Shown in pieces: positions 12,282 to 40,600 of a stretch of DNA of 64,000 bases (position 1 is its first letter; each line of letters starts with the position of its first letter). The stretch spans positions 7,876 to 71,875 of the forward strand of contig JAMWZA010000004.1 in assembly GCA_024305105.1 (NCBI GenBank). Reading direction: 5' to 3'. The notes under the pieces are model-generated. The model was given only the letters and a program-made list of their open reading frames with translations, had not been told where the DNA came from and made no database searches. A program made the translations under genes and the position numbers. Source of the DNA: Marinoscillum sp. Its GTDB lineage: Bacteria; Bacteroidota; Bacteroidia; Cytophagales; Cyclobacteriaceae.

Positions 12282-13691
12282 CTACTTTACAAATCGTGAT
12301 ACCGTGTCACCAAATTGGACAAGATATATACCCGGTGCGAGCGAACTAACGTCTGTCATGCGGCCACTATTCTTCAAAAGAAGCTTCCCTTGCATATCAA
12401 ATATCTGTATGGACGTATCATCATCTATACCTTTTATTCGAAGATAGTTGTTTACTGGATTAGGCACTATCTGAATTGATACATCATTAGTTCCATTTCT
12501 AATAGTTGTTTTTCTTGATGACGAATTGTTGTCTAGCTCAGATCCAGATAGAAGCACAGGATCAATCCATTTGTTTTCTGGAATAGCATCTGTTGAGCTA
12601 TGAGCACTATAGTAAGAACCCAGATCAGTGAGTGATCCGTTCTCCTTTAAATTACATCTCGCCTTTACGCTATCTACTTGAAAACACTCAAACCAGGCAT
12701 ACCTCTCTATGAAATTTTGAGATTCCAACCAAGGCAGGGCTTTTTCCATAAATCCCTTTTGTACATAAGTCCACCTCCAGGGATTGGCATTAAATTCTGT
12801 TACCCAGATTGGCAATCCATATTTGGCATGAATGGCCAAAAGGTCATTTTTAAATCGGTTAAAAATGTGATCAGGATCAGCCCCTCTTGTATTTTTCGGA
12901 TTACTATCCCAATCATACCAATGTACTGCGATATAATCCACTTTCACATCAAGATGATAAGCTTCAGATAGGAAAGGTTCAAGCCAAACACTATTTAGGT
13001 CATTATTTTGAGTAGTTACAGGCGATCCCAGTCTTAGCCCCGTAGGCAATAGTTTTTCGTATTCATCTGCAGCTGTCACGGGATTTTTCAATATGCCCCT
13101 ACTTCCGGCCTCATGGTCATTATCTGGCTCATTGAAACCAAGAAGATGACTCACTTTGTTTTTTAAATTATCAATTTTTGAGAAAACACCACTGCCCGTC
13201 CAGGTATGAACCATAGGTACAAACTCTATGGACGTAGAAGTATCACCAGTGGCTGTCCAGTTGTAATACCAGCTCGCATTCATATCCTGGGCATAGGACA
13301 CTCCACCACTAGTTTCTGTTTTTCCCACTCCCTTTTTTTGAGAAGTACTGATTGGTAGCACTCGGATAAATGATGCTTTATTATGAAGTATATCAGGTAA
13401 GTTTTCGTTGACATGCCCCACCTGGGATATATAGGTTTTACTGTATCCAGTTCCATCCTCATTTTCAGAGAAAACGACCTGATATCCAGAGAATATTTTG
13501 ATAGAGGAGATGCGGTTGTTTAAGTTGTTAGGGATTGCACTTCCGGTGTAAGTACCAACATCAAGCAGTGCATTATCAGAGTTCCACTGATTTTTGTAAT
13601 CATACACTCTCACGCCACTCTGTGCGTGCAAATGAGCCGCAACCAGTGATAAAACTAAAAGGAGTAAAGCATTTTTCATTATCATCATCAT
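12282..13691 (-). CDS. Beta/gamma-crystallin domain + GH128-like glycoside hydrolase + T9SS CTD
   Basis: Crystallin motif NNRISSIKI. GH128 motifs WYYNW, LLGFNEPD, DYIAVHWY, PIWVTEF, ERYAWF. C-terminal IVPNPVNN...YLVQ. Likely start MKNALL at 13679. Confidence 0.85.
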   Translation of the reverse strand: MMMIMKNALLLLVLSLVAAHLHAQSGVRVYDYKNQWNSDNALLDVGTYTGSAIPNNLNNRISSIKIFSGYQVVFSENEDGTGYSKTYISQVGHVNENLPDILHNKASFIRVLPISTSQKKGVGKTETSGGVSYAQDMNASWYYNWTATGDTSTSIEFVPMVHTWTGSGVFSKIDNLKNKVSHLLGFNEPDNDHEAGSRGILKNPVTAADEYEKLLPTGLRLGSPVTTQNNDLNSVWLEPFLSEAYHLDVKVDYIAVHWYDWDSNPKNTRGADPDHIFNRFKNDLLAIHAKYGLPIWVTEFNANPWRWTYVQKGFMEKALPWLESQNFIERYAWFECFQVDSVKARCNLKENGSLTDLGSYYSAHSSTDAIPENKWIDPVLLSGSELDNNSSSRKTTIRNGTNDVSIQIVPNPVNNYLRIKGIDDDTSIQIFDMQGKLLLKNSGRMTDVSSLAPGIYLVQFGDTVSRFVK

Positions 13692-17094: not shown

Positions 17095-21682
<4,588 letters not shown>

Positions 21683-22093: not shown

Positions 22094-23452
22094 TCAATCC
22101 TGACCCTTTTTATGATACTCATCACGTTGCTCCAATCCGAGAAACAGAGGAGCCAAATGGCTCTTTCTCCAATCCTGATAGGTCTGTAGCATCTCCTGAA
22201 GAGTGACAGGTTGGTCCACTGGGGTTTGTTCACTTAGATCGTTCTGTAGATTAAACAGCGCATTTACCGAAGATTCTTCATTGACCAGCTTCAGATTACC
22301 AGTGCGTACCCCATAGCTGTCTTTATCAACATTGACCCACATCAAACTGGGGTGTGGAGTGCCAGAATTTTGACCATTGATATACGGAATCAGGTCAACC
22401 CCGTCCAGGGTGTCTTGCGGGATTACACCGGCATAAGTACAAGCTATCGCAAACAGGTCCATAGAACTGACAGGCTGGTCGTATTGACCGGGGGTGATCA
22501 TTTCCGGCCACATCATGGCGAATGGAACACGTACCCCACCTTCAAACATACTGCCTTTTCCTTCACGAAGTTGCCCGTTATCCGACCCATTCGCATACTC
22601 AGGACCTCCATTATCTGATAGAAATGCAACGATGGTATTGTCGAGAATCCCATTGGTCTTCAGTGACTCAAGTACGATACCAATACCATCATCCATAGCA
22701 CTGACCATAGCGGCATAGGTTCTTCGTTTTTCATCTTGGATATGGTCAAATCGGCTCAGATACTTCTCTGTGGCCTGCAGTGGGGCATGAGGAGCATTAT
22801 AAGAGAGATAAAGGAAGAAAGGATTTTCCTGATTCTGTTCTATAAAACCAACGGCTTCACGACTCAGTGCGTCAGTCAAATATTCAGTTTCCTCAACTGG
22901 CTTATTATTGCGCAAAAGTTTAGTCCGGTACCAATCCCAGTCCCTGGTGACTTCTGAAAGGTCGTTGTAAATATATTCTTCAGGAAAATAGCGATGGCCA
23001 CCTGATAGAAAGCCATAAAAGTAATCAAAACCCCTGCGGTCTGGTTTTAGTGTCTCATGTGCGCCCAAGTGCCATTTGCCGATAATCGCATTGGTGTAGC
23101 CTGCTGTCTTGAGCTCGGTGGCTAGTGTTCGTTCTGAAAGGGGTAAACCCATATTAGGGTCATTTGGAGCAATAATTGGATTACGGGCAAATCCGAAGCG
23201 ATTTTGGTATCTACCAGTGATCAATCCTGCTCTACTTGGACCACAGACCGGGTAGGTCACATATCCATTTGTAAACACTACCCCTTGGTTGGCAATCCGG
23301 TCAATATTAGGTGTTGGGATATCCTTACATCCGGTAAAACCCACATCGGCATACCCAAGATCGTCAGCCAGGATGATGATTACGTTGGGCTTTTGCTGGG
23401 ATACTGCTGCTCCACACAGGAAAAAACCAAAAACTATCAAAAGAATTTTCAT
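22094..23452 (-). CDS. S1 sulfatase, apparent paralogue of 17091-18476
   Basis: ADDLGYAD, CGPSRAGLITG, GKWHLG, YNAPHAP, LSDNGG. Shares RRTYAAMV and LRxxKG...EGGVRVPF with 17091-18476. Confidence 0.93.
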   Translation of the reverse strand: MKILLIVFGFFLCGAAVSQQKPNVIIILADDLGYADVGFTGCKDIPTPNIDRIANQGVVFTNGYVTYPVCGPSRAGLITGRYQNRFGFARNPIIAPNDPNMGLPLSERTLATELKTAGYTNAIIGKWHLGAHETLKPDRRGFDYFYGFLSGGHRYFPEEYIYNDLSEVTRDWDWYRTKLLRNNKPVEETEYLTDALSREAVGFIEQNQENPFFLYLSYNAPHAPLQATEKYLSRFDHIQDEKRRTYAAMVSAMDDGIGIVLESLKTNGILDNTIVAFLSDNGGPEYANGSDNGQLREGKGSMFEGGVRVPFAMMWPEMITPGQYDQPVSSMDLFAIACTYAGVIPQDTLDGVDLIPYINGQNSGTPHPSLMWVNVDKDSYGVRTGNLKLVNEESSVNALFNLQNDLSEQTPVDQPVTLQEMLQTYQDWRKSHLAPLFLGLEQRDEYHKKGQD

Positions 23453-24829: not shown

Positions 24830-26650
24830 TTATTGCTTTTGAAGCCGAACTGAAAATGTCTGACCAGAAATAGTTTCCAAAATCAAGAGATAGGTTCCTG
24901 CTGAGAGGAACGAAATATCTAAACTCGATGAGTCAAGTAACTTCTTGTATACTTCTTTACCGGTATTATCAAGGATCCACGCTTTATGGATGGTAACACC
25001 TTCAATGGCAAGTATCCCTTTTACTGGATTCGGGTAGACTAATGGTTCTTCATTCGGTCTCGTAGTGTCAAGGGAAATAAGCGCTTCCTCAAAAACCCTT
25101 TGGTATAACTGATTTTTTAATTGATTTCTTATCAATCCATATTTTGGGTCATTTGCAAGGTTGGTCCATTCATTTGGATCTTTTTGATGATCATATAATT
25201 CTTCTAGACCATTTGCATAATGTGTATATCGAAAATGGTTATTCCTCAGGGACCAATGCTGTTTCTTTAGTTCATTATTACTTTCGGCACCAGCAAAGGC
25301 CATGGTTAATGCGGCATTAGGACCTTGGAATTTTTTTGACTTTACATCGTACAGAAAAGGCCTTAGAGAATACCCATCCAAAGGAGCCCCAAGATCGTTT
25401 CGACGCGTGTCGCCTTCTATACCGCAAAGGTCTGTTAGTGTTGGATATAAGTCTATAAGAGATACAGCCTCATTGCATACCTTTCCATTTTCAGGGCCAT
25501 TTGGTAACCGGATCATTAATGGCACACGTGTACTCTCTTCCCATAGAGAATTTTTAAACAAATAGTCCTTCTCCCCCATGTTCCATCCATGGTCACTAGT
25601 AATTATTACAATGGTGTTGTCCGCTAGGCCTGCAGCATCTAGTCCTGCCAATACCTCCCCGATAGCATCATCTACCGCCGCAACACTTGCCAGGTATCCC
25701 TGAGTAAAAGCACGGATACCTGATTCTTGAATGGTATAGGATTCTCCAATTAACCTAAAATACCGAAACCCTTTTTGATTGCGATCATACACCGTTTTTA
25801 GATGTGTGTCTTCATTATCTTCCTCTTTCAGAACTGGGGTTTGGACCGAATCAATAGGAAACAAATCAAAATACCTCTGAGGTACATGCAACGGAGTATG
25901 CGGTCGAATAAACCCCACAGCTAAAAAGAAGGGTGAATCAGGACTCTTGGCAAGAGTGTTCAATTGATCGCGAACCCAGAGGGCATTTCGCTCATCTGGT
26001 GTGGGATCACGATTATCCTCATCTACATACCGAAATGACTTCACTTCACCCCATCCTCCATAAATCCATCCAGAGCTTTTGAGGGTATCATTAGCATAAG
26101 GAACGTCTGAGAGTGAAGCAAATGAACCATCTACCGCTCCAATTTCTCTAAAAGGCAATGGTACGGAAGGATGACCTACACGGTTTTTACCATCGTACAC
26201 AAAAGGACCATAATCAGCCTGGTATCCGTAAGTAGAATAAATGGATCGTTCATGATGGTGGAAAAGCTTTCCAGTCCCACGAACATCATAGCCATGGTCT
26301 CGAAAGTGCTCCATCATACTTTTAGAATTGCTAAGCGTTCGGTTTTTAAACCATTTGTTCCAAAACAAATTACCTGAAGTATGAGGGTAGATTCCAGTAA
26401 ATAAGCTAGCTCTTGACGGAGCACATACAGGATTATTGCTATGAGCATTATTAAATGAAACCGCGATTTTTCGAAATTGATCAAGATGAGGAGTTTTTAC
26501 CTGAGGGTGACCATCCATTCCTTGCACATAGTCATTTAAATCATCACAAATAATGAATAATACGTTTGGTCGACTCTTTGATCCATCTATTTGAGCATTG
26601 CACTGTAAAAAAACGAGCAGACAATAAAATCTTAATAAGCTTCTTAACAT
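24830..26650 (-). CDS. S1 sulfatase (iduronate-2-sulfatase-like) with T9SS C-terminal sorting domain
   Basis: ICDDLND, CAPSRASLFTG, GKLFHH, RPHTP, TSDHGW; C-terminal VYPNPVKG...GTYLLIL...VRLQKQ. Confidence 0.92.
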   Translation of the reverse strand: MLRSLLRFYCLLVFLQCNAQIDGSKSRPNVLFIICDDLNDYVQGMDGHPQVKTPHLDQFRKIAVSFNNAHSNNPVCAPSRASLFTGIYPHTSGNLFWNKWFKNRTLSNSKSMMEHFRDHGYDVRGTGKLFHHHERSIYSTYGYQADYGPFVYDGKNRVGHPSVPLPFREIGAVDGSFASLSDVPYANDTLKSSGWIYGGWGEVKSFRYVDEDNRDPTPDERNALWVRDQLNTLAKSPDSPFFLAVGFIRPHTPLHVPQRYFDLFPIDSVQTPVLKEEDNEDTHLKTVYDRNQKGFRYFRLIGESYTIQESGIRAFTQGYLASVAAVDDAIGEVLAGLDAAGLADNTIVIITSDHGWNMGEKDYLFKNSLWEESTRVPLMIRLPNGPENGKVCNEAVSLIDLYPTLTDLCGIEGDTRRNDLGAPLDGYSLRPFLYDVKSKKFQGPNAALTMAFAGAESNNELKKQHWSLRNNHFRYTHYANGLEELYDHQKDPNEWTNLANDPKYGLIRNQLKNQLYQRVFEEALISLDTTRPNEEPLVYPNPVKGILAIEGVTIHKAWILDNTGKEVYKKLLDSSSLDISFLSAGTYLLILETISGQTFSVRLQKQ

Positions 26651-26861: not shown

Positions 26862-28025
26862 CTATGGGTTACAGTAACTTGCAATGGCTAAATCAAGCTT
26901 TGATCTAAATTTTACTATGCGGTTGAAAATGATATAATTGCTATTGTGCTGATTATCAGCACCCTCATACTCATCATCAAAGGCAGTGCGTATCACTGCC
27001 ACAATATCATGCTCATCAAACTGCCAATCGGCATATTGAAAACCATGCTTATGTACATCTGGATGATACAGTATCTCCTCGTGTACTGTCCAGTTTAAAA
27101 GATCTGGTGAGGAACTTAATGCCAGACAATTTCTTGTGCGCTCGGGGTTGTGTCCAAAATCCCTAATGTGATTCGAGAGTGTCCAATACCTCTTGCTCCT
27201 TGGGTCATAGCGAACAGTGAATTTCTTTGCTCCTCCTGGAAAATTGATAATGTCACTTTTTTCATCGAACGAAATGATGTTTTTTTCTATATCATAACGG
27301 ACCAAAGCGGCTTTTCCGCCATGTTCGAGATAGTGCAATCGTAACATATTGACAAGTTGGCTATCGGGAGTGACCACTATATTACCTTCTAACCAGGCGG
27401 AGCCCAACCAGCGTTGATCAAAATGCAGACGATTGGAAGTTTGCCAGCTATCAGCACTCAACAAATCTGAATCAACTGCAGCGGAGACAATTAATGTCTC
27501 GAAATTGGTACCCCAACCATATCCCGGATTCCTAACCTCTACTGCTCTATACAATCTTCCCTGATGCCTTACTACAGGTACAGGAGCGGAATGATACTCA
27601 AAATCATTTCTCAATAATCCAGATTGGGAATCTGCCGGTTCAGTCCAACTATATCCGTTATCAGTACTTTTTCGTATTATCAGGTCACCATACTTTTTGG
27701 ACACTCCCATTAAGTATATTTCATAATTGTGTACAAACAATCCTGACCAGCAATTGCCTTCTAAAACTGAAATTTCAGTCCAGGTTTGTCCTTTGTCAAG
27801 AGAGTGATAAATTAGGGTTTTCGGCTTTGAATTCATCTGGCTGTTTGGCCCGAACTCTGTATGAGTGCTTAAATACGTGCCATCACCGAGAATCACTACA
27901 GAAGGACCTCCAAGATATACTCCGGTATGTGCAGGCGAGTGATTAATTACAACGCCTGGTACTTTTGGCTGAGTGGACCCCTCTACAGATAAAATTATGA
28001 GTAGTACTGTTAATAGCCGTTTCAT
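26862..28025 (-). CDS. BNR/Asp-box beta-propeller protein (sialidase-fold, activity unknown)
   Basis: Asp boxes SLDKGQTW and STDNGYSW; signal peptide; no F/YRIP motif. Confidence 0.75.
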   Translation of the reverse strand: MKRLLTVLLIILSVEGSTQPKVPGVVINHSPAHTGVYLGGPSVVILGDGTYLSTHTEFGPNSQMNSKPKTLIYHSLDKGQTWTEISVLEGNCWSGLFVHNYEIYLMGVSKKYGDLIIRKSTDNGYSWTEPADSQSGLLRNDFEYHSAPVPVVRHQGRLYRAVEVRNPGYGWGTNFETLIVSAAVDSDLLSADSWQTSNRLHFDQRWLGSAWLEGNIVVTPDSQLVNMLRLHYLEHGGKAALVRYDIEKNIISFDEKSDIINFPGGAKKFTVRYDPRSKRYWTLSNHIRDFGHNPERTRNCLALSSSPDLLNWTVHEEILYHPDVHKHGFQYADWQFDEHDIVAVIRTAFDDEYEGADNQHNSNYIIFNRIVKFRSKLDLAIASYCNP

Positions 28026-28031
28026 TCATTT

Positions 28032-29354
28032 CTATTTTTTAGTTCTTCTTGATTCTATAAGGGTTGTCCATTGCTGCAAATACTGGTGCAATTCTTGAGC
28101 TTTTTTAGGGTGATCTTCTAAGAGATCTTTTTCTTCGTATGGGTCTGACACGAGGTTATATAACTGTGCTGGCCGATCAGACACATTTTTTGGAATATCT
28201 TTGGTCACATATGGACGCACATACTTCCATGCACCTAAGCGAACGGCGGCATTATGACTGTATTCTGGTATGTACCGATTCCACTGCCAATACAAGGGTC
28301 TTTGGGGTATTGCTTTATCCCTTGTTAAAGTTTTGAAAAAACTTGTACCATCTAACGGGGTTTCCAATTCATATTCCAGCGCACAAAGTTCCATTAGCGA
28401 AGGTAAAACGTCAATGAAGGTGATAGGGTAACTTTTAGAACCAGACCCCAACTTATTCCACTGTAAAACGAATGGAACTTTAATCCCCCCTTCGTTTACA
28501 GTATACTTTGTTCCATTTAATCCTAAGTTGGGACGTTTGGCAACCATTGGATCCGGGCCATTATCACTGGCGAAAATGATCATAGTATTTTCCCGAATAC
28601 CTAGGCGGTCCAATTCGGTGAGTAAAGCACCGATCCCTTCGTCCATGATCTCTATCATTGCATAGACGGTTGCTGTTTCTTTTGCTAATCCTTTATCAAG
28701 ATAGGGCTTAATTCTGTCTTCTGGAGCCCCAAGTGGACGATGAGGAGCATAATGAGCGAGATGTAAAAAAAAAGGCTTATCATGATGTCTATTGACAAAG
28801 TCGATTGCTCGTTTACTTAATTCCTCGGTCAAATATTCATTTGAAAAGTGAATATCCTGACCATTAATATTGAGATCAAAATTATGGTAGTCAGGAACAT
28901 ATTGGTAATTAAGAAACCCTTCAAACTCGTCAAATCCCCGGTCATTCGGTAAGTACCCATTTCCGAGACCAGAATGCCACTTGCCTATTAAGCCGGTTTT
29001 GTACCCATTACTTTTGAAAATATCCGCCATGGTAGGAAGCTCTTTTTTAATACGAGTTAGCTCAGGATACTTTAACATGCTTAGAGTCACCACGCCAGTA
29101 CTGTGTGGGTATAATCCAGTTAGCAATGAAGCTCTGGCTGGGGCGCATACAGGAGAAGCTGAATAGGCGTTTTCAAACCAGATGCCCTGCTCTATTAAAC
29201 CGTCAATATTAGGTGTTTTGCTTAAACCGCCGTTTAATGCAGAGATATCTCCTAGAGCCATATCATCAGCTATAATTAGGATTACATTCGGAGATGTTTG
29301 AGCTAAAGAAGATTGATAAATAATAAAGTAAAGGAGAACAATAAGTATCCGCAT
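28032..29354 (-). CDS. S1 sulfatase
   Basis: ADDMALGD, CAPARASLLTG, GKWHSG, YAPHRP, ASDNG. Confidence 0.92.
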   Translation of the reverse strand: MRILIVLLYFIIYQSSLAQTSPNVILIIADDMALGDISALNGGLSKTPNIDGLIEQGIWFENAYSASPVCAPARASLLTGLYPHSTGVVTLSMLKYPELTRIKKELPTMADIFKSNGYKTGLIGKWHSGLGNGYLPNDRGFDEFEGFLNYQYVPDYHNFDLNINGQDIHFSNEYLTEELSKRAIDFVNRHHDKPFFLHLAHYAPHRPLGAPEDRIKPYLDKGLAKETATVYAMIEIMDEGIGALLTELDRLGIRENTMIIFASDNGPDPMVAKRPNLGLNGTKYTVNEGGIKVPFVLQWNKLGSGSKSYPITFIDVLPSLMELCALEYELETPLDGTSFFKTLTRDKAIPQRPLYWQWNRYIPEYSHNAAVRLGAWKYVRPYVTKDIPKNVSDRPAQLYNLVSDPYEEKDLLEDHPKKAQELHQYLQQWTTLIESRRTKK

Positions 29355-29437: not shown

Positions 29438-30814
29438 TTAATTATTATATATAACTATTTTATCAAGGTATGGAGACTGCTCACCTTCAACAGGACTGAA
29501 TACGATCTCATTATCTCCTGCCTCCAAATTAATTTCAATTGAAATGGTAGCACTCTGTGTTTCAAAACAAAAGCCTGGCGCATCAAAACCAGTTTCCACG
29601 ATTGGCGTGCTACCGTTAATACTTATTTCTAGCTGGGTTTCTACCTTAGCAAAATAGGTTATCTCCAGATCATACGTTCCTGCTGTTTCTACGTTAACCG
29701 GTGAAAACTTCAACTCATTGTCGCCCTGACCTTCTTCAGTTCCACGCATGAAAATAAGTCCCGAACCTGACTTGTTAGCACAACCGCCAGCTACAGCATC
29801 GCCTCCTGCATTGGTCAAATCTCCATCTTCTGCTTCACTGGAATAAACAGGATCTCCTTTGTTTTCATGATCTCCGTCTCCGTCATCTCCATCTCCGTCA
29901 CCATTATCAGAATCGATACCTGAGTACCACGAGTCATCTCCCGGGCCTGCATTTACGTTAGGTGTATGATTTGCATAGAATTGACCAAGTTCGGTCAACT
30001 CATCGTTATCATCGAATAATACAGAATTTCCAAGAACACGCCCATTAGGACTACCGTTATACCAGGCATATCGGTGCACATAGGGTAATTTATCTAGTGC
30101 AGGTAGGACTTCTTTCATAAAGGCTAGGACTTCTTCCTTGGAGTAGCGATTGTCTTCAAGAGAAGCGGCACCCCAGTCAGCAACTGCAAATTCTGTTATC
30201 CAAATCGGTCGGTTGTATAGACTATATACTTTTTTTACCATATTCAAAAAAGCCATAGGATTCGAACCTCCATACCAGTGAATGGCTACATAATCTACCC
30301 TCAAACCTTTTTCTTCTACCTGACGCATAAAATTCGTCATCCATTCATTATCAGGATTAACTGGGGCAGGACTGATTAATGGCAATCCAGTTTGTTCTAA
30401 TCTAGGCCATAACTCCACTACCTCTTCCACAGAAATGTTTGATTGGTCATCCTTATCTGGTTCGTTGAAGCCGAGCAAATAGTTTATATCACCAGATAAC
30501 GCCAAGCTATCTATATATGCGATATTCTCATCATTTGGAGCCCACTTACCCCAGAACATGGGTACATATTCTACACCTGTTGGTCTTGTCGGTTGGAGTC
30601 TGAATCCCCAAGAATAATGCCAATGAGCGTTCAACCGACTTATTCGTGTAGACCAGGTCTCATTATTGTAAGTGAAAGCCACTCCCTTTTTATTAGTAGC
30701 GGAATCCATAACTAGTGGTGTTGCCTTATCTGTATCTAGAAATGATTTGAAAGATTCTTTCTCACAGCTAAAACCTACCACTGCTATTACTAGTAGTATC
30801 AGAATTCGTTTCAT
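29438..30814 (-). CDS. Surface lipoprotein GH128-like glycoside hydrolase with C-terminal CBM6/35-like module
   Basis: Lipobox GFSC; HWHYSW, LLGFNEPD (E118), DYVAIHWY, PIWITEF (E208), HRYAWY; a D/G-rich linker, then an EAEDG module at aa 322-458. Confidence 0.87.
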   Translation of the reverse strand: MKRILILLVIAVVGFSCEKESFKSFLDTDKATPLVMDSATNKKGVAFTYNNETWSTRISRLNAHWHYSWGFRLQPTRPTGVEYVPMFWGKWAPNDENIAYIDSLALSGDINYLLGFNEPDKDDQSNISVEEVVELWPRLEQTGLPLISPAPVNPDNEWMTNFMRQVEEKGLRVDYVAIHWYGGSNPMAFLNMVKKVYSLYNRPIWITEFAVADWGAASLEDNRYSKEEVLAFMKEVLPALDKLPYVHRYAWYNGSPNGRVLGNSVLFDDNDELTELGQFYANHTPNVNAGPGDDSWYSGIDSDNGDGDGDDGDGDHENKGDPVYSSEAEDGDLTNAGGDAVAGGCANKSGSGLIFMRGTEEGQGDNELKFSPVNVETAGTYDLEITYFAKVETQLEISINGSTPIVETGFDAPGFCFETQSATISIEINLEAGDNEIVFSPVEGEQSPYLDKIVIYNN

Positions 30815-30843: not shown

Positions 30844-32391
30844 TTACTCCCAAGCAGGATTTTGGATTAGGTTTTCGTTTACATCCAGTTCGCTTTGAGG
30901 GATGGGAAAAGTCTCAGATCTAACACCTAAATAAACCGGGTCGTATGGGCCAACGGGATCAGCTGATGCTCGATTGATTCCTTCTTCTATTTCACCCCAT
31001 CGCTTCAGATCCATAAATCTCAATCCTTCTAAAGCAAGCTCGACCCGACGTTCATGTCTGACAACATCCCTCATCTCATCCTGAGTTAAACTAGTTCCTT
31101 CCACATCTTCTACAGTGGGCATACTTACTCTTTCGCGAATCTGATTGATCAGTTCACGTGCTCCCGTCAAATTACCCGTTTCTACTAAAGCTTCGGCTCT
31201 CGTGAGTAAAACTTCTGCGTATCGTATTAAATAGAAGTCCTGAGAACCTTGACCACCTGGAGGATTACCCTCTTCATCTGGTCCTTGTCTTATGTATTTG
31301 CGATGACCAAATCCTGTAGCTCCATTGCCATTGTATACTTTATCAGGGTTTACCAAGAAAAGATCACCTGGGAAATAAATAGTCGCATTCGCACGGGGAT
31401 CTCTATTAAGACCTGGATTGTTAGGATCATATCTAGGGGACTCATCTATTGGAAGTCCATCAGTACAATAGAAGTCATTTACAAGATTAGGCATGGGCCT
31501 GCTGTCCACTTTAGGTGTCCCCAGGTAAGTGGCAGAAAACGTTTCTCCATTGTCCGAATCAGCACCTCGTAAGAAACGTACGGAGAACACGATCTCTGGT
31601 GAGTACTCCCCCTCAATTGAGAACAGTTGTCCGTAGTTTGGGTGAAGTGAGTAACCAAGCCCTAATAATTCTTGTGTTAATTCCAGTACGCCATTAGGAC
31701 CTTCATAGACTTTATTATAAAGCTGTACCCGTGAGAGTAATGCCAGAGCTGCACCTTTAGTAGCGTATCCGTATAGCCCACTATCGTGTTGCTCAGGTAA
31801 GTGATCTATTGCAAATAATAGGTCTTCAATTATCTGATCATTAATTTCCTGATAAGAATTCTTCGGTACATAAGCTTCTTCTAGAGTTTGGTAGCTAGTG
31901 ATAAGCGGTACTTCCTCATAGTAGAGAGCCAGGTTAAAATAAAAGAGAGCACGAAGAAACATCGCCTGACCTATATAGTTATTTTTTGTCTCGGCATCTA
32001 TCAAGGATTCGTCCATTTCAGAGATTTCGTCTATAGCGATGTTCGCCTTGCTTATCCCCGAGTAGATGCCATTCCAGCGACCACCAAATAGGCCTGCTGT
32101 AGGGTCAAGAGTCCCCTCCATGAATTGGGCTCCGCCTTCCCACTCCCATTGATTGTAAGCATTATCACTTATTACATCAAAGTGAGGAAACCCGATGACA
32201 CCATTTAGATTGCCACCATAAAGACCATCTCCTTGTAGTTGTGAGTAGATGGCATTGAGCCCTAAGCGAGCATCAGCTTCGCTTTGCCAAAAATTGTTCT
32301 CTGCGATTGAGGTGAGAGACGAGCGTTCTAGAAACTCTTCGCCACATCCCAGAAATAAACTGCCAATAATGATGATAATAAATTTCTTCAT
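30844..32391 (-). CDS. susD: SusD/RagB glycan-binding lipoprotein
   Basis: Lipobox FLGC, FLRALFYFNL, ATKGAALALLSRVQLY, IRYAEVLL..AEA, RHERRVELALEGLRFMDLKRWG; immediately downstream of susC. Confidence 0.95.
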   Translation of the reverse strand: MKKFIIIIIGSLFLGCGEEFLERSSLTSIAENNFWQSEADARLGLNAIYSQLQGDGLYGGNLNGVIGFPHFDVISDNAYNQWEWEGGAQFMEGTLDPTAGLFGGRWNGIYSGISKANIAIDEISEMDESLIDAETKNNYIGQAMFLRALFYFNLALYYEEVPLITSYQTLEEAYVPKNSYQEINDQIIEDLLFAIDHLPEQHDSGLYGYATKGAALALLSRVQLYNKVYEGPNGVLELTQELLGLGYSLHPNYGQLFSIEGEYSPEIVFSVRFLRGADSDNGETFSATYLGTPKVDSRPMPNLVNDFYCTDGLPIDESPRYDPNNPGLNRDPRANATIYFPGDLFLVNPDKVYNGNGATGFGHRKYIRQGPDEEGNPPGGQGSQDFYLIRYAEVLLTRAEALVETGNLTGARELINQIRERVSMPTVEDVEGTSLTQDEMRDVVRHERRVELALEGLRFMDLKRWGEIEEGINRASADPVGPYDPVYLGVRSETFPIPQSELDVNENLIQNPAWE

Positions 32392-32395
32392 GATC

Positions 32396-35300
32396 TTAAA
32401 ATTTCAGATTTGCACCAAATGTTACTGTTTTATAAAGGGGGGCGTTTCGGTTTCCATTACCACCACTTGCTCCTTCTGGATCGAAATCATCTACTGATGA
32501 AAATGTCAACAAATTTTGACCACCAACGAAAACTCTTAAACGATCTATTTTGATGCGCTCGGTTAGTTTTTTAGGAATGGTATAGCCAAATTCAATGTTT
32601 TTAAGTCTAAGGTAACTCGCATCACGTATGTAAAATGACGAGTTTAAAGCGTTATTTTGACCTCCAAGTCTTGGCAGATACTCACTAGGTTGTTCGGGTG
32701 TCCAGCGATTAACCCAATAGGATAAAACATTACTTCTATCATCTTCCATTGGGTATTGCCCATTACCAGTGATTAATCGATCAATATCATGTACTCCCTG
32801 GAACAAAATATCAATATCAAAACCACCAAATCGAACGTTTCCATTCAGGTTATACAACCATCCAGGGTATGGATTCCCAATAATTGTACGGTCATCGGCA
32901 TTTATCAAACCATCCGGCACACCATCTGGTCCTGATATATCTGCATACCTAATGTCACCAGGTCCGGTGTTGGCATTTCCAAACTGTGCTGGAGCTAAAA
33001 CCACTTCTTCCATTGTTTGGAAAATACCAACGGCTTGGTATCCATAATACGATCTCAGTGGATCGCCAATTCTAATGATGGTTGCTCCGCTGATGGTTTC
33101 TTCACCTCCATCTCCCAGTCCTGTTACTTCATTCGATAGGAACTTAGTAAAGTTACCTCCGATTGTATAACTAAGGCCACCAATATTATCGCGGTAGTTT
33201 ATGGCAAGTTCAATTCCCTTATTCACCATGGATGCGGCATTCTGAGCCGGAAGGTTCGTAGTACCAATAGTGCTGGGAATTGGGAAATTGTTGTATAGGA
33301 TATCGGAACTCTTACGTTCGTAATAGTCACCAGTAAGCTGAAGTTTGCTTTTGAAAAAACTGGCATCAAATCCTATATCAAATTGCTCTACCTCTTCCCA
33401 ACGTATATTGGGATTTGATAGGCCAGTCAAGGCAACTCCCCCTACATTTATATCATTGCCTAGTACGTAATCTAGGTTTGCATTGTAGGTTTGTTCATAA
33501 ATGTAATTCCCAATTCGGTCATTACCAGTTATCCCCCAGCTTCCACGAACTTTAAGGTTTGAAAGCCACGTAATATTTGCCATAAATGCTTCCTCCGAAA
33601 TACGCCATCCACCAGATGCCGAAGGAAAATAAGCATAGCGATTGCCAGGACCAAACTTCGACGATCCATCTCTTCTTAGATTAAATTCCAATAAGTATTT
33701 TCCATCATAATTGTAATTAATTCGGCCAAAATATGATTGGTAAGACTCTTCATTAGCACCACCAGAAACGGCTGGATCTAATACACCCCCGCCATTAAAT
33801 TCTTCAATATTATTAGTAGGAAACCCACTTAATGAACCAGAAAAGCCATCAGTTCGATCATATATGAACGATTGTCCAACTAAAACATCTATATTATTTT
33901 TTTCATTTATGGTTGTGCTGTATCGAAGAATGTTCTCATTGAGCAACCGATAACTGAAATTTGTACTATTGCCCAAGCTGTTAACCAAATCCTGATTGAC
34001 AATATTACCTTCCCAATCCCTAAGGACATATGTAGGGCTGAAATTAGACGATTGACCTGTTATAAAATTTAAACTCCCACTTGTCTCTAAAGTCAAGCCT
34101 TGTAAGATTTTTATTTTCAGGCCTAAGCGTTCGCTTATATTGATATTGTCATCTAAATTGTTTCCCAGAAAACCTCTACGAAGAGGATTAGTAGTTGGGA
34201 ACGAAAAATTATCACTTTCGTAAGCTCCATCAACAATTCCGTATTCACCATTACTGTAATAAACTGGAATAGTGGGAGACACTCGTTGAAAACTGTAAAT
34301 AATTCCATTATCTCCATCAAAAGCACCCCCTTGTGGACCGTTAACTCGTTTCCAAAAAGCATTAGTCACATTACTCAATGTTAGCCAATCTTTAACATCC
34401 GACTTTACATTCAAACTAAAGTTGTATCTACGTGATTTGAATTTACTTCGCACTATGGCTTCTTGTGTCAAATACCCTAATGACAACCTGTATGTAGTCT
34501 TTTCATTTCCTCCAGAAAACGATAAGCTATGGTTTTGAATAGGCGCATCCACTAGCAAGACTTTAGCCCAATCAGTATTGGAAAATTGATCAGGCATACT
34601 TCCGGTACGAATAGCTTCAATTTGATCGTCCGTATATCGGGGAGTAAAATTCGGTCCGTTTTGATTCTGGAATTTTTCATTCATCAAAGAAGCGTAGTTG
34701 TAAGCATCTAAGAACTCAGGAACGACCGTAGGACTCTGAGTACCAAAATAGTTATTATAGTTTACTTCAAACGTATTTTTCTTTCCCGTTTTAGTCGTCA
34801 CTACGATAACCCCATTGGCCCCTCTAGCTCCATAAATGGCACTGGCAGAAGCATCTTTTAAAACTGTAATTGATGCAATATCTGTTGGAGCAAGATTGTT
34901 AAATGGCCCTAAATTGTCATATTGTATATTATCAATCACCAAAAGTGGTGTGCTATTTCCAAAGGTCCCTACACCTCTAATCACAACCGATGAACCATCT
35001 TGACCTGGGGCACCAGACGTTTGTGTCAACTGAACTCCCGAGAACCTACCATATAGTAATTGACCACTATTGGTAACGGGTTGGTTTACAGCTTCTTTGA
35101 ATTCAATAGTTTCCACAGCTCCTGTAAGGTTTACCTTTTTTTGCTCACCGTAACCTACCACTACCACTTCGCTTAATTCTGCGATATCCACTTCCAGAGA
35201 AACATCAAGATATGATTTACCCGCAGTGTTCAATTCCAAGGGTTTATATCCAACATAGCTAATGCGTATTTTTGCACTAGGTTCGGAGAGGTTAAGGGAA

Positions 35301-35491
35301 AATTTACCATCAATATCGGTTACTGTACCATTTTCTGGATTTGATAGATCCAAGATTACGGCGCCAGGTATAGTAGATCCATCCTCTTCATCGGTTACCT
35401 GACCACTAATTTTAGTCTGTTCTCCTTGTGCCCACAGGCTTGTGATACCCACTAGCCAGACAATCAAGAATAGTTGTAGATGCTTCTTCAT
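32396..35491 (-). CDS. susC: SusC/RagA TonB-dependent transporter
   Basis: [65 protein letters not shown]; terminal ...GANLKF. Confidence 0.97.
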   Translation of the reverse strand: [1031 protein letters not shown]

Positions 35492-35660: not shown

Positions 35661-35742
35661 AGTAAAGAGCAAAGATCAACCTGTTATCGCCTTAGTAGTC
35701 CATTACTTTTTATCGTAATGTGGTTGATCTTTGCTCTTTACT
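35661..35742 (-). terminator. 21-bp perfect inverted repeat overlapping the stop codon of the upstream gene
   Basis: agtaaagagcaaagatcaacc (35661-35681) and ggttgatctttgctctttact (35722-35742), with a 40-nt loop containing cattac/gtaatg. Confidence 0.6.
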
Positions 35743-37420
35743 TTATAATCAACCTCAGTGTCTCCACGTTTTTCTGATGCTTAACTTGCAGTAGATAAAA
35801 TCCCTTGGGTAGATTATTAACATGGTACAAACCATTCTCCTTATCGATCCTAAATTGCTTCCCAGTCGAGTCGAAAACCATTAGCTCGTCTATCCCCTCT
35901 TGATTTGAAAGTTGAAAATAGTCACTGGTTGGGTTCGGATAAATCTGAGGCCCGGAAACGTGGAGGTTCTGAAGAATTGTTTCTTCTACTATGTTTATCT
36001 GTAATGAACCTGAGATACCATTGGCTGTCGCAGATACGGTAACTACACCTTGTTTGATTGCCTGTAAGAGGCCATCCTGGTCGATTGTAGCTTCTCCATT
36101 TTCATTAGCTACGGACCAATTTACTTCAACATTTGTTGCATTTTCAGGCTCTATTGTAGCGGACATTTGTAAGGTCTCACCTTCGATAAGAGTAACAATG
36201 TCATCCATAGAGGAAACTAGAACATTCGTTACTGGAACTACTTTTGTATAAATTTCTATTCTGTCGAGATACGGTGATTGAATTCCTTCTACGGGACTCA
36301 AAGCCAACTTATTCTCGCCAGATTTCAGTTCAACAGGCACAACAAGCAACGCACTTGATGTAGCGAAACAAAAACCTGGAGATTGAAAGGATGAGACTAT
36401 AATTGTATCATCCTCGTTGATTATGACTTCAAGTTCGGATTGGACATTGGCAAAATAACCAATCTCCAGGTTGTATATTCCATCTGTATCTACTGTAATA
36501 CTACCAAACTCTACAACTCTATCACCTTCTCCTGCATTTAGTCCGCCCATGAATATAAGACCATCGCCTGATTTATTGCCACAACCTCCGGCTGAGATAG
36601 ATACTTCGGCATTAGACAGGTCCCCCTCCTCGGCTTCAGAGCCGAAAACAAGATCCCCTTCTCTTACCACTTCAATTGCTAGAGAATCTGTAACTCCTGA
36701 ATTGTCTTGTGCTGCGGCCACCACTGTGACCATACCAGGTTTCTCTGCTGTCAGCAATCCTTCATTTGTTATAGATGCTCTCCCTATATCATTTACCACA
36801 GACCATGTGACTTCTTTTACAGCAGCATCCTCAGGAGAAACCTCAGCAGAAAATTGCAGCGTACCTCCCAAAAGGACAGCAATGGAATCATTGGACGAAG
36901 CAACAACGATAGAGTTGACGGGTTCGCCATTCGGAAGTTCAATGATTGTCACCACGTCCAGGTAAGGCGAATTAATACCCTCAACAGGGCTCAACTTCAG
37001 GTTGTTGTCTCCTTCTTTCAGCTCTATATCAAAGGTGTATTTTGCGCTTTCAGTTTCAAAGCAAAAACCAGGGGAAGCAAAATCTTTCTCGATTATAGTG
37101 TCAGTATCGTTGATAATGATCTCTAACTGAGATTCATTCTTGGCAAAATAGGTTAATTCAAAACTATATGTTCCTGCCTTGGATACGTTGATACCCGTGT
37201 AGCTGACATATCGATCACCATCACCGGATTGGTCTCCTCTCATGAAGATCAGACCTGAACCAGATTTATTGCTACAGCCTCCGGCTGAAACAGCAACACC
37301 CGCATTCGTTAGATCTCCATCCTCGGCTTCTTGAGTAAAAACAACAGTTTGTGCAAATAGTGTATTGCTAAGCGTAGCATAACACAATGCAAAAAGGACA
37401 ATTCGTAATTTTCTTATCAT
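35738..37420 (-). CDS. Secreted non-catalytic protein: two CBM6/35-like modules, two Ig-like (Big_2) domains, T9SS CTD
   Basis: EAE(D/E)G modules at aa 26-161 and 257-392; Big_2-like units (V.PE.A....VTWSV...A.I...GLL.A...G.VTV.A); C-terminal IYPNPTSD. Confidence 0.82.
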   Translation of the reverse strand: MIRKLRIVLFALCYATLSNTLFAQTVVFTQEAEDGDLTNAGVAVSAGGCSNKSGSGLIFMRGDQSGDGDRYVSYTGINVSKAGTYSFELTYFAKNESQLEIIINDTDTIIEKDFASPGFCFETESAKYTFDIELKEGDNNLKLSPVEGINSPYLDVVTIIELPNGEPVNSIVVASSNDSIAVLLGGTLQFSAEVSPEDAAVKEVTWSVVNDIGRASITNEGLLTAEKPGMVTVVAAAQDNSGVTDSLAIEVVREGDLVFGSEAEEGDLSNAEVSISAGGCGNKSGDGLIFMGGLNAGEGDRVVEFGSITVDTDGIYNLEIGYFANVQSELEVIINEDDTIIVSSFQSPGFCFATSSALLVVPVELKSGENKLALSPVEGIQSPYLDRIEIYTKVVPVTNVLVSSMDDIVTLIEGETLQMSATIEPENATNVEVNWSVANENGEATIDQDGLLQAIKQGVVTVSATANGISGSLQINIVEETILQNLHVSGPQIYPNPTSDYFQLSNQEGIDELMVFDSTGKQFRIDKENGLYHVNNLPKGFYLLQVKHQKNVETLRLIIK

Positions 37421-37616: not shown

Positions 37617-40600
37617 CTAGACTTCTACCTTTTTCTTTTCCTTATAGTCAGATGGAAGGCATCCAAATTGTTCTTTAAAACTACGTTTGAAATACTTGTA
37701 GTCGTTGAACCCAACTTTGTAGGCTACCTGACTTAAGTTTAAGTCCTCCTTGAGGATGATGGAGGCGGCCAGCTTCAAGCGTACAGATCGAATAAATGCG
37801 GTAATGGATAGGCCTGTCAGCGATTTGATTTTACGGTAAAGAGTGGATTGGCTCATGTGGAATTCTTCCATCAATGACTCGATTCCAAAATCTTCATTGT
37901 GAACGTTGCTCTCTACCAGTGACATGGTTCTCTGCACAAATTGCTCTTCCAGGTCTGTAACTCTAGAGTCATTTGGCTCAAATCGTACTTTTTTAAGGAG
38001 ATAGTCTCTGATTTTTTTACGATTTTCAAGCTGGCTGAAAATTCTGGATTTTACAATTTCAGGATTGAAAGGCTTTTTGATATAATCATCTGCGCCCGTC
38101 TGAAGTCCGGTGACCTCATAGACCGTGGAAGTACGTGCAGTAAGTAAAATAACGGGAATATGTGAAGTAGAAATTTGAGTCTTTACAGCCTTACAGAGGG
38201 CAATTCCGTCCATTTCAGGCATCATAATGTCACTGACAATCAAATCAGGCACCTCTAAAGAAGCCGTTTCAAGGGCTTGTTTACCATTCACGGCCTTCAA
38301 AACGTGATAATCAAGTTCCAGAATAGATTCCAGATAGTGGAGAATCTCCAAATTATCATCCACAAGCAAGATGGTGTAATCCTTTTCGTCATCTCCCAGG
38401 TTGGTTGGAATATCACTGACGGCATATCTTTCCAAGTCATCACTACCCATGAAGTTATGAATTCGTTCAGATTCTGAAAACGCCGAATTTCCATTGAAAG
38501 GCAAATGAACGGTAAAAGTCGTTCCTTGAGACTCCTTACTCATTACCTCTATTCTGCCATGGTGCAGTTCAATGATATTTTTTGTAATGGTCAATCCGAT
38601 ACCTGTCCCGACGATCTTAGCTGATTTGCTTGTGTTTATCTGGTAAAATCTGTCGAAAATCCTTTCAAGATGCTCAGCGGGAATGCCTTGTCCAGAGTCG
38701 GTAACACTGACCACACATTCGTTATCACCTGACTCTACCTTCATGACTACACGATCACCCTTATCTGAATACTTCAAGGCATTGGAAAGCAAATTACAGA
38801 GTACGATTTCCATTTTATCCCGATCGAACAAAAGTTGTATATCATTTTCAGAGATAAATTTTAACTCCACTCCTTTAGATTCAGACGCTTGTTTAAATGA
38901 AAGGTATATCTCATGTGCAAAAGCCGAAAAATCTCCCATGGCTACCTGAAGTCTTAGCATTCCATTCTCTGACTTTCTAAAATCCAACAATTGTGAGATT
39001 AGATGAAGCAGACGTTTGGTATTGCGCTCTGCGCTAATCAATTTCGTGCGAATGGCATCAGGCACATTGGACAAGGCTAAAACTTCCGTTACAGGACCCA
39101 AAATTAGGGTCAGAGGAGTCCGCAGTTCATGAGAAATGTTTGTAAAAAAGGTAAGCTTAGCCTCAGTCAATTCGTGTTCTTTTTCTTTGGCAATCCTCGC
39201 TATCTCAAGATTCGACTGAAGCCGTGTTTGTTTTTGCGAAAACCTTCTGATTAGTAGAATAATGATGAATAGCACCAGATAGTAAAAGGCATAGGCGTAC
39301 CATGAAAGCCATATTGGTGGCAAAATCCTAAGCTTGAGAATACGTGCTTTACCAAAATGCTGATTATCACGTGAAGCTTGGATTTTGAGTTGGTAAGTGC
39401 CTGCAGATAAACCAGTAAAAGTGATCTCAGAGTGATTTGCATTATAGACCCACGAATCATGAGCCCCTTCCAATTGATAACGATATGTGATATTTAATGG
39501 ATCCATGTAATCATTAGGGGTAAAATGGACTGAGAAAACTACTTCTTCATGAGTAAGGGTGATTTCATCAGTGTAAACGATACTTCTGGTTATTAAAACC
39601 CTATCATTGACCAGCTCCCCCACTTTGACCAATTTACCGTCCACCGTGAGACCTGTGAGTACAACTTCCGGAGGATTGGTATTGGACGTGATTCTACTTG
39701 GGTCAAATGCGATAATTCCCTTTTGTCCGCCAAAGAAAAGAAGGCTGTTGGATCTGAACACAGCATTGATATTGAAGGCTCCGACCTGAATACCAACCCC
39801 ATGCCCATAATTCAAAAATGTTTTAGTATCCAAGGCCATTTTAGATATCCCCTGGGGAGTACTGACCCAGAGGTTTCCGGAAAAGTCTGATGTGACAGCA
39901 GAAATAAAATCACTGGATAGACCGTCACTCATATCGTAACGATCTACCTTGCTATCTTTTGGGTCAAGATGTAGTAACCCAGAGGGTGTCCCAGCCCACA
40001 GAGTTCCATCACTATGTGGATGTAGCGCGTGTATGATTACACTCAAAAACTTCTCTTTAAATAAGTCATTGTGGTGAGTAAATCGGTTATACAAAGGATT
40101 GTAAAGAAATAGTCCATTATAGGTTCCTATCCATAAATTTCCTGTAGAGTCAACTTCGATAGCACTGATTCTTTCGCCCGTCAAATCGGTATCAAACCAA
40201 TTTGCACGCTCTAATCTATTGGTATCTTTTCCACTAAATATTATCTCGGAATTGATTACTGCTAACCCATTTTGTTGGGTTCCAATCCACAAATAGCCTT
40301 GATCGTCGTAATGCAGCACCATTACTTTATATTGAGGCGATGATATTCGCTCAAACATCATTTTTCCACGAACAAGTTTTGCAATAAATAGTCCTCTGGA
40401 CGTCCCTACCAGTAAATAGTCACTTACTTCCAGAAATGCATTGACTTTTAGTGGATAAGGTTTCAACTCTACTTTTTTAAAAGAAGCTTGATGTTCACTG
40501 AACCATATCCCTCCCCGATTTCTTCCACTCCAGTAACGTCCGTAACGGTCGACATGGAAGGCATGGACGTTGTGGTCTTGATTTGACTCGTCTTCAGATA

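Follow-up and report, generated by a model that had tools for sequence, protein, structure and literature searches.

The window analysed here, a stretch of 64,000 nucleotides from a Marinoscillum sp. (contig JAMWZA010000004.1), contains at 29438..30814 a gene for a 458-residue lipoprotein with an ATG start, which consists of a glycoside hydrolase family 128 (GH128) domain, an Asp/Gly-rich linker, and a module similar to carbohydrate-binding modules of family 35 (CBM35-like). The gene is part of a polysaccharide utilization locus (PUL) and is flanked by susD on one side and a sulfatase on the other. We put at roughly one in two the probability that its product acts as an endo-enzyme at the cell surface in the use of sulfated β-1,3-(arabino)galactan, for example of the Codium type, a substrate which would probably be new for the family.

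A GH128 lipoprotein between SusD and a sulfatase

Of 36 open reading frames (ORFs) of at least 150 amino acids in the window, 33 were taken as genes and scanned; the three left out are plus-strand ORFs that overlap larger minus-strand genes. All genes from about 12 kb to about 59 kb lie on the minus strand, and this is the strand of every window feature given below. In the direction of transcription, a hybrid two-component system (HTCS) protein with AraC-type output, the likely PUL regulator (37617..41606), is followed by a Big_2 protein with a sorting tail of the type IX secretion system (T9SS), recognized by Pfam and possibly a secreted or surface glycan-binding protein (35738..37420), by a SusC-like TonB-dependent transporter with CarbopepD_reg_2 and Plug domains (32396..35491), which is syntenic in all related loci, by a SusD-like outer-membrane glycan-binding lipoprotein (30844..32391; PF07980, E = 5e-52, and PF14322, 3e-25), by the GH128 gene, and by a sulfatase (28032..29354). 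The gaps are 4 bp between SusC and SusD, 29 bp between SusD and GH128, and 83 bp between GH128 and the sulfatase, with all four genes co-oriented, so the gene order claimed in the first-pass annotation, with GH128 directly after susD and a sulfatase next, is correct. Adjacent susC and susD, co-oriented genes of carbohydrate-active enzymes and a regulator define a Sus-like PUL, in which the Big_2/T9SS gene is placed between HTCS and SusC.

The N-terminus of the protein (30764..30814) reads as a signal peptide that ends in a lipobox (MKRILILLVIAVVGFSC), with Cys17 as its cysteine and the acidic residues EKES next to it; in alignment A1, which has 34 relatives, 90% or more of them keep Cys17. The place after SusD suggests that this lipoprotein is exposed at the cell surface. 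The catalytic domain, delimited by Pfam, alignment and an AlphaFold2 (AF2) model, spans residues ~38-295 (29930..30703); the PF11790 profile (Glyco_hydro_cc, i.e., GH128) matches residues 44-280 with E = 3.7e-52 and 177.7 bits at a cut-off of 21, and is covered in full (positions 1-237 of 237). An exact-sequence look-up of the whole protein returned no entry, and its closest solved relative by sequence is AmGH128_I (6UAQ; phmmer 3e-36, 34.7% identity over 225 aa). The AF2 model has pLDDT 82 overall and mostly 85-98 in the catalytic domain, which Foldseek superimposes on AmGH128_I with a TM-score (TMt) of 0.84-0.86 and a root-mean-square deviation (rmsd) of 2.6-3.0 Å; GH128 subgroups IV, VI and VII are matched as well, and the predicted fold is the (α/β)8 barrel of clan GH-A. 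The top match of the whole model is CBM6E (8J3X, 1.8e-23). Among the solved subgroups, subgroup I comes nearest (3e-36 versus 1e-24 for subgroup II), at an identity of only 34.7%, and AmGH128_I is the outgroup in the tree described below.

The flexible linker (WYSGIDSDNGDGDGDDGDGDHENKGDP; residues 296-322, 29849..29929), in which pLDDT drops below 50 for residues 299-318, leads to a C-terminal β-sandwich of 136 residues (~323-458; 29441..29848), identified as CBM35-like by Foldseek and profile search. The module does not reach the Pfam threshold for CBM_35 (16.7 bits versus a cut-off of 28, E = 0.0091); its profile finds 2WZ8 (0.0014) and 2VZP (0.025) in the PDB, and its model can be laid on the CBM35 folds of 2WZ8 (TMt 0.81, rmsd 2.9 Å) and 2W1W (TMt 0.73). 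The CBM35 of the exo-β-1,3-galactanase Pc1,3Gal43A (7BYV/7BYS) is matched with rmsd 2.1-2.3 Å over 135 columns (E = 4e-9). The C-terminal module is exchanged within the clade of the target: the CBM35-like type occurs in the target and about five of its closest relatives, and CBM4_9 (PF02018) in most others. In two loci, L001 (10001-12789) and L033 (9950-12753), one gene of each type stands in tandem after susD.

The acid/base catalyst is E118 in the motif GFNEPD (codon 30461-30463), and the nucleophile is E208 in WITEF (codon 30191-30193). They align with E102 and E199 of AmGH128_I, mutated in 6UAT, 6UFL and 6UAS: the E199Q and E199A crystal forms read 'iwltQya' and 'iwltAya' opposite 'iwitEfa' of the target, and the E102A entry is among the Foldseek matches. 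This alignment, the PF11790 match and the Cys17 lipobox bear out the earlier call of a GH128-like lipoprotein with both catalytic glutamates. Place after SusD is typical of surface glycan-binding proteins, and GH128 subgroup VII consists of oligosaccharide-binding proteins, according to the Foldseek descriptions of 6UBC and 6UBD; a GH128 derivative that binds glycan without cleaving it is therefore conceivable here. We regard it as highly improbable, in view of the invariance of E118 and E208 in 102 aligned relatives, the conservation of T207, just before the nucleophile, at 95% or more within each clade, the invariance or near-invariance of the Asn that precedes the acid/base and of the His-x-Tyr motif in more than 100 relatives, and the nearest structures, which are active endo-enzymes.

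A conserved locus type and its galactose-directed enzymes

In a large protein collection, more than 1,100 relatives of the target reach E ≤ 1e-10. Identity to the target is 60-68% for the closest of full length, and those at 65-67% come from a metagenome-assembled genome (MAG) of Balneolaceae and from metagenome contigs. Most of the relatives listed are GH128+CBM4_9 proteins of ~445 aa, and the few with source names belong to marine Flavobacteriaceae and Marinilabiliales genera. The contigs of five relatives share the order [sulfatase] HTCS, SusC, SusD, GH128, [small T9SS protein], sulfatase(s), [GH2], [GH16], [β-helix].

We then scanned genomes, one per species, and annotated the best 80 of ~590 loci with hidden Markov models made from the window proteins. 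A neighbor-joining tree of 102 GH128 catalytic domains falls into four groups, A to D. The target belongs to clade A, whose 37 leaves represent 34 non-redundant loci and the window; counts out of 34 below refer to these related loci. Clade B is made of Pedobacter and Chitinophaga, all non-marine genera; clade C, of Planctomycetota and Verrucomicrobiota with a mix of others; and clade D, of other paralogs, several of them T9SS-tailed, including a second GH128 of the window. GH128 directly follows susD in all 34 clade A loci, and in 29 of them a sulfatase gene lies no more than 10 kb away; of the other five, three are contigs shorter than 12 kb. The order HTCS-SusC-SusD-GH128-sulfatase is kept in most of them, with HTCS upstream of SusC in 22. 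Clade A includes Polaribacter, Leeuwenhoekiella, Algibacter, Aestuariivivens, Gaetbulibacter, Yeosuana, Lutibacter, Mangrovimonas, Psychroflexus, Marinifilum, Marinilabilia and Labilibacter, as well as Saprospiraceae, Balneolaceae and a brine Chitinophagaceae MAG; the locus type is also present in Draconibacterium. Preservation of gene order across many genera and more than one phylum indicates that the pairing of SusD-linked GH128 with sulfatases is a conserved locus type.

Outside clade A, some relatives from Planctomycetota and Verrucomicrobiota adjoin sulfatases without SusCD (L040, L049, L051, L070 and L074), and those from Pedobacter and Chitinophaga have SusCD nearby and no sulfatases, except for one weak match (L060). 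The PUL of these soil genera (GH5, SusCD, a PKD protein, a 943-aa protein, GH128, and a T9SS protein) was considered as a source of clues to the substrate and revealed none.

The window encodes nine S1 sulfatases and a weaker sulfatase/phosphodiesterase-like ORF (52314-53321). The one directly 3' of GH128 (28032..29354; PF00884, 7e-57) is S1_16/S1_19-like, of the Gal/GalNAc-4-sulfate type, with PDB matches to the κ-carrageenan sulfatase S1_16 (9FO1, 3e-59) and the exo-4S κ-carrageenan sulfatase (6PRM, 2e-57). Another, at 24830..26650 (PF00884, 1.8e-44), has a T9SS tail (Por_Secre_tail, 3.8e-07) and is secreted or surface-bound, possibly for an extracellular desulfation step. The most widely shared sulfatases across the loci are orthologs of two others. 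The S1_19 enzyme at 22094..23452, of the β-D-galactose-4-sulfate type (6BIA, 1e-103; ι-carrageenan sulfatase 6B0J, 7e-101; 6PRM, 1.7e-100), is the best match of sulfatases in 25 of the 34 loci, at up to 72% identity, and is the most conserved of all. The S1_15 enzyme at 41632..43188, of the galactose-6-sulfate type (S1_15A, 9BAS, 5.4e-206; 9BAU, 4e-189), has homologs in 12 loci; S1_15A and S1_15B are structurally defined exo-galactose-6-sulfate 6-O-sulfohydrolases (PMC12549532). Three further S1 sulfatases are found at 17091-18476, 15685-17094 and 14145-15638 (PF00884, 7e-63, 9e-61 and 1e-38, respectively). In five related loci, S1_19 is fused to GH16: the single ORF of ~741 aa at L013:15607-17829 matches PF00884 (2e-65) and, at the C-terminus, PF00722 (1e-15), and the same fusion occurs at L011:18356-20587, L012:15493-17715, L014:15608-17830 and L024:2402-4705.

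Several other recurring partners are also directed at galactose. A GH2 β-galactosidase of the LacZ type (18473..21649), recognized by its GH2 domains and by NCBIfam NF052611 (1022.5 bits, cut-off 999), has homologs in 9 of the 34 loci, and a galactose mutarotase is encoded in two loci. A GH136-like β-helix family occurs in 17 loci and, as two paralogs, in the window: the protein at 43306..44985, assigned through the family profile A4, is 48% identical to orthologs in related PULs, and the one at 45087..47723, with Beta_helix and Por_Secre_tail matches, is 30% identical to the conserved family over 554 aa. The A4 profile of 19 members hits 6KQS (2e-50), 7V6M (8e-48) and the LnbX structure 5GQC (8e-43), which places the family in GH136. 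It has an invariant Asp pair seven residues apart, D320 and D327 in GDSAGAHIDFN, which we take to match the catalytic pair of LnbX. GH136 enzymes are known only as lacto-N-biosidases, which release Gal-β-1,3-GlcNAc, and a marine member with a role other than the use of milk or mucin glycans would be a discovery in itself. Among the sulfatase genes lies L-ribulokinase (AraB; 48009..49676; NCBIfam NF003154, 659 bits, cut-off 428), an enzyme of L-arabinose catabolism; the window showed no gene for an arabinose isomerase, an epimerase or an arabinofuranosidase.

A pointer to a β-1,3-galactan backbone comes from the relatives. The GH43 protein of locus L027 belongs to GH43_24, with a match of 1.5e-124 to 6EUG and further matches to the exo-β-1,3-galactanases 3VSF, 7BYS and 5FLW. 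GH43_24 homologs are present in 5 of the 34 loci, those of three Marinifilum genomes, where they are directly 3' of GH128, of Marinilabilia rubra and of Labilibacter sediminis. A separate observation was made in the non-marine Pedobacter cryophilus, where a T9SS-tailed GH128, a GH43_24-like GH43 and a GH16 follow each other (L058:9800-14363), with GH2 upstream and no sulfatase; it suggests that GH128 is linked to β-1,3-galactan enzymes in settings other than the sulfated marine one as well.

The same partners could serve another galacto-configured linkage with a 3-substituted sugar at subsite -1, either the β-1,4 bond of carrageenan- or agar-like sulfated galactans, or Gal-β-1,3-HexNAc in a sulfated glycoconjugate of animal or microbial origin. 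The nearest relatives of S1_19 are κ- and ι-carrageenan enzymes, and that of S1_15A is a λ-carrageenan enzyme; GH136, with its lacto-N-biosidases, a SASA-type esterase and BNR-like proteins in the window would also fit such a reading, and the GH16 type found in locus L005 matches the endo-β-galactosidase 1UPS (3e-9). GH16 κ-carrageenases, moreover, evolved from laminarinase-like ancestors. On the other side, the window has no carrageenase of GH16_13, GH82, GH150 or GH167, no anhydrogalactosidase of GH127/GH129, no α-galactosidase of GH110, and no GH20, GH29, GH33 or GH95, and a single GH127 appears among the families listed for 44 further flank ORFs of the related loci (the best 25 of 65 families). 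Loci L024 and L036 apparently come from inland brine and sediment MAGs, if their names, 'T5-Br10' and 'T3Sed10', are a guide to origin, and red macroalgae are unexpected there. Because the backbone enzymes of the carrageenan, mucin and keratan pathways are absent, and because GH43_24 in the relatives points to a β-1,3-galactan backbone, we rank these readings lower and consider them improbable.

A BNR/β-propeller-like protein of 387 aa (26862..28025), 6 bp after the sulfatase, has weak BNR matches and no significant match in the PDB or NCBIfam; the inventory of the window lists two BNR-like proteins and the SASA-type esterase. The second GH128 (12282..13691; PF11790, 6.6e-44) is extended at the N-terminus, carries a sorting tail of the T9SS type (Por_Secre_tail), is 28.7% identical to the target, and groups in clade D with GH128s of Polaribacter, Marinilabilia and Labilibacter, several of them T9SS-tailed. 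The Big_2 protein upstream of SusC is weakly similar (26%, 181 aa) to a T9SS CBM-like protein of ~270 aa found 3' of GH128 in 19 of the 34 loci. A clan GH-A-like protein at 51145-52317 was considered as part of the conserved module and rejected, having no homolog in any related locus. No GH145, GH105 or GH43 was found in the window. A scan for promoters and terminators between 21.5 and 38 kb gave counts equal to the shuffled expectation, and such a scan is uninformative for a Bacteroidota-type locus. No RNA runs were found for this locus, and DNA nearly identical to it is present in 'algae metagenome' runs.

Three further proteins were noted. The ORF at 54677-57412 encodes a 911-aa VWA-domain protein with a T9SS sorting-domain match near the N-terminus (residues 88-154), and overlaps the next gene (53269-54714) by 38 bp; T9SS sorting domains are normally C-terminal, and the ORF may have a mis-called start or be a gene fusion. 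A T9SS-tailed protein of 2,522 aa (1661-9229) starts with a purple-acid-phosphatase/metallophosphoesterase domain and continues with many Ig-like and InlB B-repeat domains. A GFO/IDH/MocA oxidoreductase (59858-61354), weakly similar to the BT_2158-type glycoside 3-dehydrogenase family (113 bits, below cut-off), adjoins an AraC regulator and a LamG-domain protein.

Galactan or glucan

Sulfated β-1,3-(arabino)galactan is our preferred substrate because the recurrent partners of this GH128, namely S1_19, S1_15, LacZ-type GH2, the GH136-like family and GH43_24, are galactose-directed. Together with ribulokinase, they point to a glycan that is sulfated, rich in galactose and probably decorated with arabinose, on a backbone of β-1,3-galactan; Codium fragile arabinogalactan is a polymer of this kind. 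The S1_19-GH16 fusions and the presence of nearly identical DNA in 'algae metagenome' runs are in keeping with this reading. The support lies in a neighborhood that is consistent across many genomes.

There are, however, a number of observations that weigh against this assignment, in addition to the fact that gene context is an indirect guide to substrate. All characterised GH128 enzymes are active on β-1,3-glucan, and none of the papers from 2021 onward that were read reports another substrate. The residues of the enzyme itself agree with this record. K42, K43, G44, W65, Y67, W69, W88, N117, E118, Q124, H179, Y181, E208 and W251 are common to the clades of the tree and AmGH128_I. In CBM6E, the contacts at subsites -1 and -2 and the aromatic platform are made by W117, W141, N167, E168, Q174, H245, Y247, E272 and F310 (PMC10956234). 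By motif spacing these map, in the same order, to W65/Y67/W69, W88, N117, E118, Q124, H179, Y181, E208 and W251 of the target, with W65/Y67/W69, W88 and W251 as the counterparts of the platform residues W117, W141 and F310. None of them varies within clades A, B and C, except for Y181 (97% in clade C), and they are the same in AmGH128_I, so that the -1/-2 contacts N117, E118, Q124, H179, Y181, E208 and W251 are those of proven β-1,3-glucanases. When the SusD/sulfatase-linked clade (n = 37) was compared with the soil clade (n = 14), the relatives from Planctomycetota, Verrucomicrobiota and others (n = 40) and AmGH128_I, the surroundings of the catalytic motifs showed no clade-specific substitution, and no position sets the sulfatase-linked clade apart by an acquired Arg, Lys or His. 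With its net charge of -14 and no gained basic residues, the catalytic domain does not suggest that GH128 itself binds sulfate; the median for clade A is -16, and net charge is uninformative, since the acidity is probably a marine adaptation. GH43_24, for its part, is absent from the window and from 29 of the 34 loci; the L005-type GH16 has its best matches, weak ones, among laminarinases (2e-12); and two full-length clade A loci, L027 and L030, have no sulfatase within 10 kb. Finally, PUL 10 of Alkalitalea saponilacus, with GH128, two GH16_3 and GH2_1, is induced by laminarin, and its GH128 is six locus tags away from SusC (PMC13591233).

As far as its sequence goes, then, the target gives no sign of altered specificity. 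The conserved platform would suit any curved β-1,3 backbone, be it glucan or galactan, and neither supports nor excludes the latter. The earlier suggestion of a new GH128 specificity, such as sulfated β-1,3-galactan, thus holds in part: it gains from the galactose-directed partners conserved across genomes, and finds no matching change in the residues of the enzyme.

One residue of the target deserves a separate mention. K121 (30452-30454), three positions after the acid/base, is equivalent to F171 in the +1 subsite of CBM6E. Lys or Arg at this place is confined to the target and the four proteins closest to it, most other clade A proteins have Gly, and the soil clade and AmGH128_I have Leu. 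K121 could be a sulfate contact.

The rival reading is an ordinary endo-β-1,3-glucanase that acts on laminarin or on the glucan part of a composite or decorated algal glycan, possibly sulfated or galactosylated; the sulfatases and galactosidases would then deal with the rest of this material or with another substrate under shared regulation. Such an enzyme would account for the nearest solved relative, AmGH128_I, for the identical active-site residues, for the GH128+CBM layout, which mirrors that of the curdlan-specific CBM6E (PMC10956234), for the proximity of GH16s of related loci to laminarinases, for the laminarin induction in Alkalitalea, and for the sulfatase-free L027 and L030. These two loci, however, both carry GH43_24, a galactan rather than glucan enzyme, along with GH16 or GH136. 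More generally, a glucanase would be out of place among partners that are galactose-specific wherever they recur, i.e., S1_19, S1_15, LacZ-type GH2, GH43_24 and galactose mutarotase, and it would lack the usual company. No GH3, GH16 or GH17 was detected among the 33 scanned ORFs, as the first-pass annotation had stated; seeds of GH16 catalytic domains from related loci match none of them, and scans of the window show no GH30. No β-glucan-specific family recurs in the flanks either, as GH3, GH17, GH30, GH1, GH149 and β-glucosidases are all missing from the 25 of 65 flank families listed. We also know of no natural sulfated β-1,3-glucan that would explain so tight a linkage to sulfatases. On balance, we hold a plain glucanase to be somewhat unlikely.

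Proposed pathway and relation to known systems

Starting from the gene content, family membership, intact catalytic residues and synteny described above, we infer for the proposed sulfated galactan PUL a surface-located, endo-acting GH128 and the following order of steps. The T9SS-secreted GH128 paralog, the T9SS-tailed GH136-like enzyme and the T9SS-tailed sulfatase would start on the polymer outside the cell. The lipoprotein GH128, tethered to the glycan by its CBM35-like module, would cut the curved β-1,3 backbone by the retaining double displacement of clan GH-A, with E118 as acid/base and E208 as nucleophile; it may attack unsulfated stretches, or may act only after the T9SS-tailed sulfatase. 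SusD and SusC would bind and import the oligosaccharides, from which, in the periplasm, S1_19 and S1_16-like sulfatases would remove the 4-O-sulfate, and S1_15 the 6-O-sulfate. Galactose would be freed by the GH136-like enzyme and GH2, and in other genomes also by the exo-β-1,3-galactanase GH43_24, and arabinose would pass into catabolism via ribulokinase. HTCS would turn the locus on.

In a broader form, we tentatively suggest, with less assurance than for the locus itself, that the SusD-linked clade comprises the first endo-β-1,3-galactanases of GH128 and defines a widespread type of marine PUL for sulfated β-1,3-galactans, in which the GH136-like proteins would be exo-β-1,3-galactobiohydrolases, and S1_19 and S1_15 would work outside carrageenan metabolism. 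This locus type would fill in a missing marine pathway, as we found no marine bacterial pathway for sulfated β-1,3-galactans or arabinogalactans in the open literature searched; such polymers are made by green algae, for example Codium, and possibly by seagrasses and microalgae. GH128 would acquire a second specificity, mirroring the path from laminarinase-like scaffolds to galactanases in GH16. Surveys of marine metagenomes and metatranscriptomes routinely score GH128 genes as 'laminarinases' (e.g., PMC11573768, PMC13251894), and the carbon fluxes assigned in this way would be partly wrong if the large SusD-linked marine clade acts on sulfated galactans. The GH128, GH136-like, S1_19 and S1_15 proteins would also become candidate enzymes for tailoring bioactive sulfated galactans. 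The hypothesis lends itself to direct testing, since the locus is present in several type strains in culture. Strains with the orthologous locus include Marinifilum flexuosum DSM 21950, Marinifilum breve JC075, Polaribacter litorisediminis, Leeuwenhoekiella parthenopeia Mr9, Yeosuana aromativorans JCM 12862, Gaetbulibacter aestuarii JCM 17455 and Aestuariivivens sediminicola.

Comparison with known systems brings out both shared and distinctive features. AmGH128_I, a subgroup I enzyme from Amycolatopsis mediterranei, has the same NEP(D) acid/base, TE nucleophile, KKG, WxYxW, MxW, HxY and YAW motifs as the target. It is, however, a single-domain actinobacterial enzyme that acts on unsulfated β-1,3-glucan, whereas the target, a lipoprotein of the Bacteroidota type, carries a CBM35-like module and is encoded in a SusCD PUL together with galactose-directed sulfatases and galactosidases. 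CBM6E from Saccharophagus degradans, in which GH128 of subgroup II is joined to CBM6 (PMC10956234), shares with the target the succession of GH128 and a C-terminal β-sandwich of the CBM6/35 fold. In the curdlan-specific CBM6E, the CBM is packed rigidly on GH128, whereas the target has an Asp/Gly linker of ~27 residues, predicted to be disordered; superposition of the whole chains is poor (rmsd ~19 Å), as the domains are oriented differently.

Marine laminarin PULs are likewise SusCD-based and likewise employ a surface endo-enzyme on a β-1,3-linked algal glycan. They are typically made of GH16_3, GH17, GH30 and GH3, sometimes with GH149 or GH158, and have β-glucosidases and no sulfatases; GH16_3, GH17, GH30 and GH3 are neither present in the window nor recurrent among the flank families listed.

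A counterpart on record is a PUL of Polaribacter clade 3-b from North Sea blooms (Avci et al. 2020), with GH128, labelled as a β-glucanase, and four sulfatases; its SusC/D proteins were detected in the 2009 bloom, and no substrate was proposed and no enzyme studied (PMC7242417). The arrangement of the window recurs in two Polaribacter loci of our set, L008 and L017. The first-pass annotation implied that the pairing of GH128 with sulfatases is unprecedented, and this has to be modified, as the pairing was mentioned briefly in 2020; what stands is that no function was given to it there (PMC7242417), and our literature search found no paper that assigns a substrate to a PUL of this kind or tests an enzyme of it.

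A further parallel is with gut Bacteroides PULs for arabinogalactan proteins (AGPs). In the AGP of Codium fragile, both the β-1,3-galactan backbone and the side chains are sulfated; GH43_24 of Bacteroides plebeius cannot cut this backbone until a sulfatase has acted, and for sulfated AGP from Codium and wine the species has, in PUL13/PUL5, the additional sulfatase BpS1_8 (PMC8406133 and reference 20 therein). The logic of these systems, with SusCD, a surface endo-enzyme for the β-1,3 backbone, periplasmic exo-galactanases and galactosidases, and prior desulfation, resembles that proposed here, and GH43_24, GH2 and GH16 are found in the related marine loci, too. Compared with AGP PULs of the B. 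plebeius and B. thetaiotaomicron type, the window itself has the sulfatases and the β-galactosidase and lacks GH43_24. Its sulfatases are S1_19, S1_15 and S1_16-like, in place of S1_8 and S1_14 of the gut PULs, and the GH136-like family is an addition. The endo-enzyme next to SusD, which is GH16 in the gut Bacteroides, is GH128 in the marine locus.

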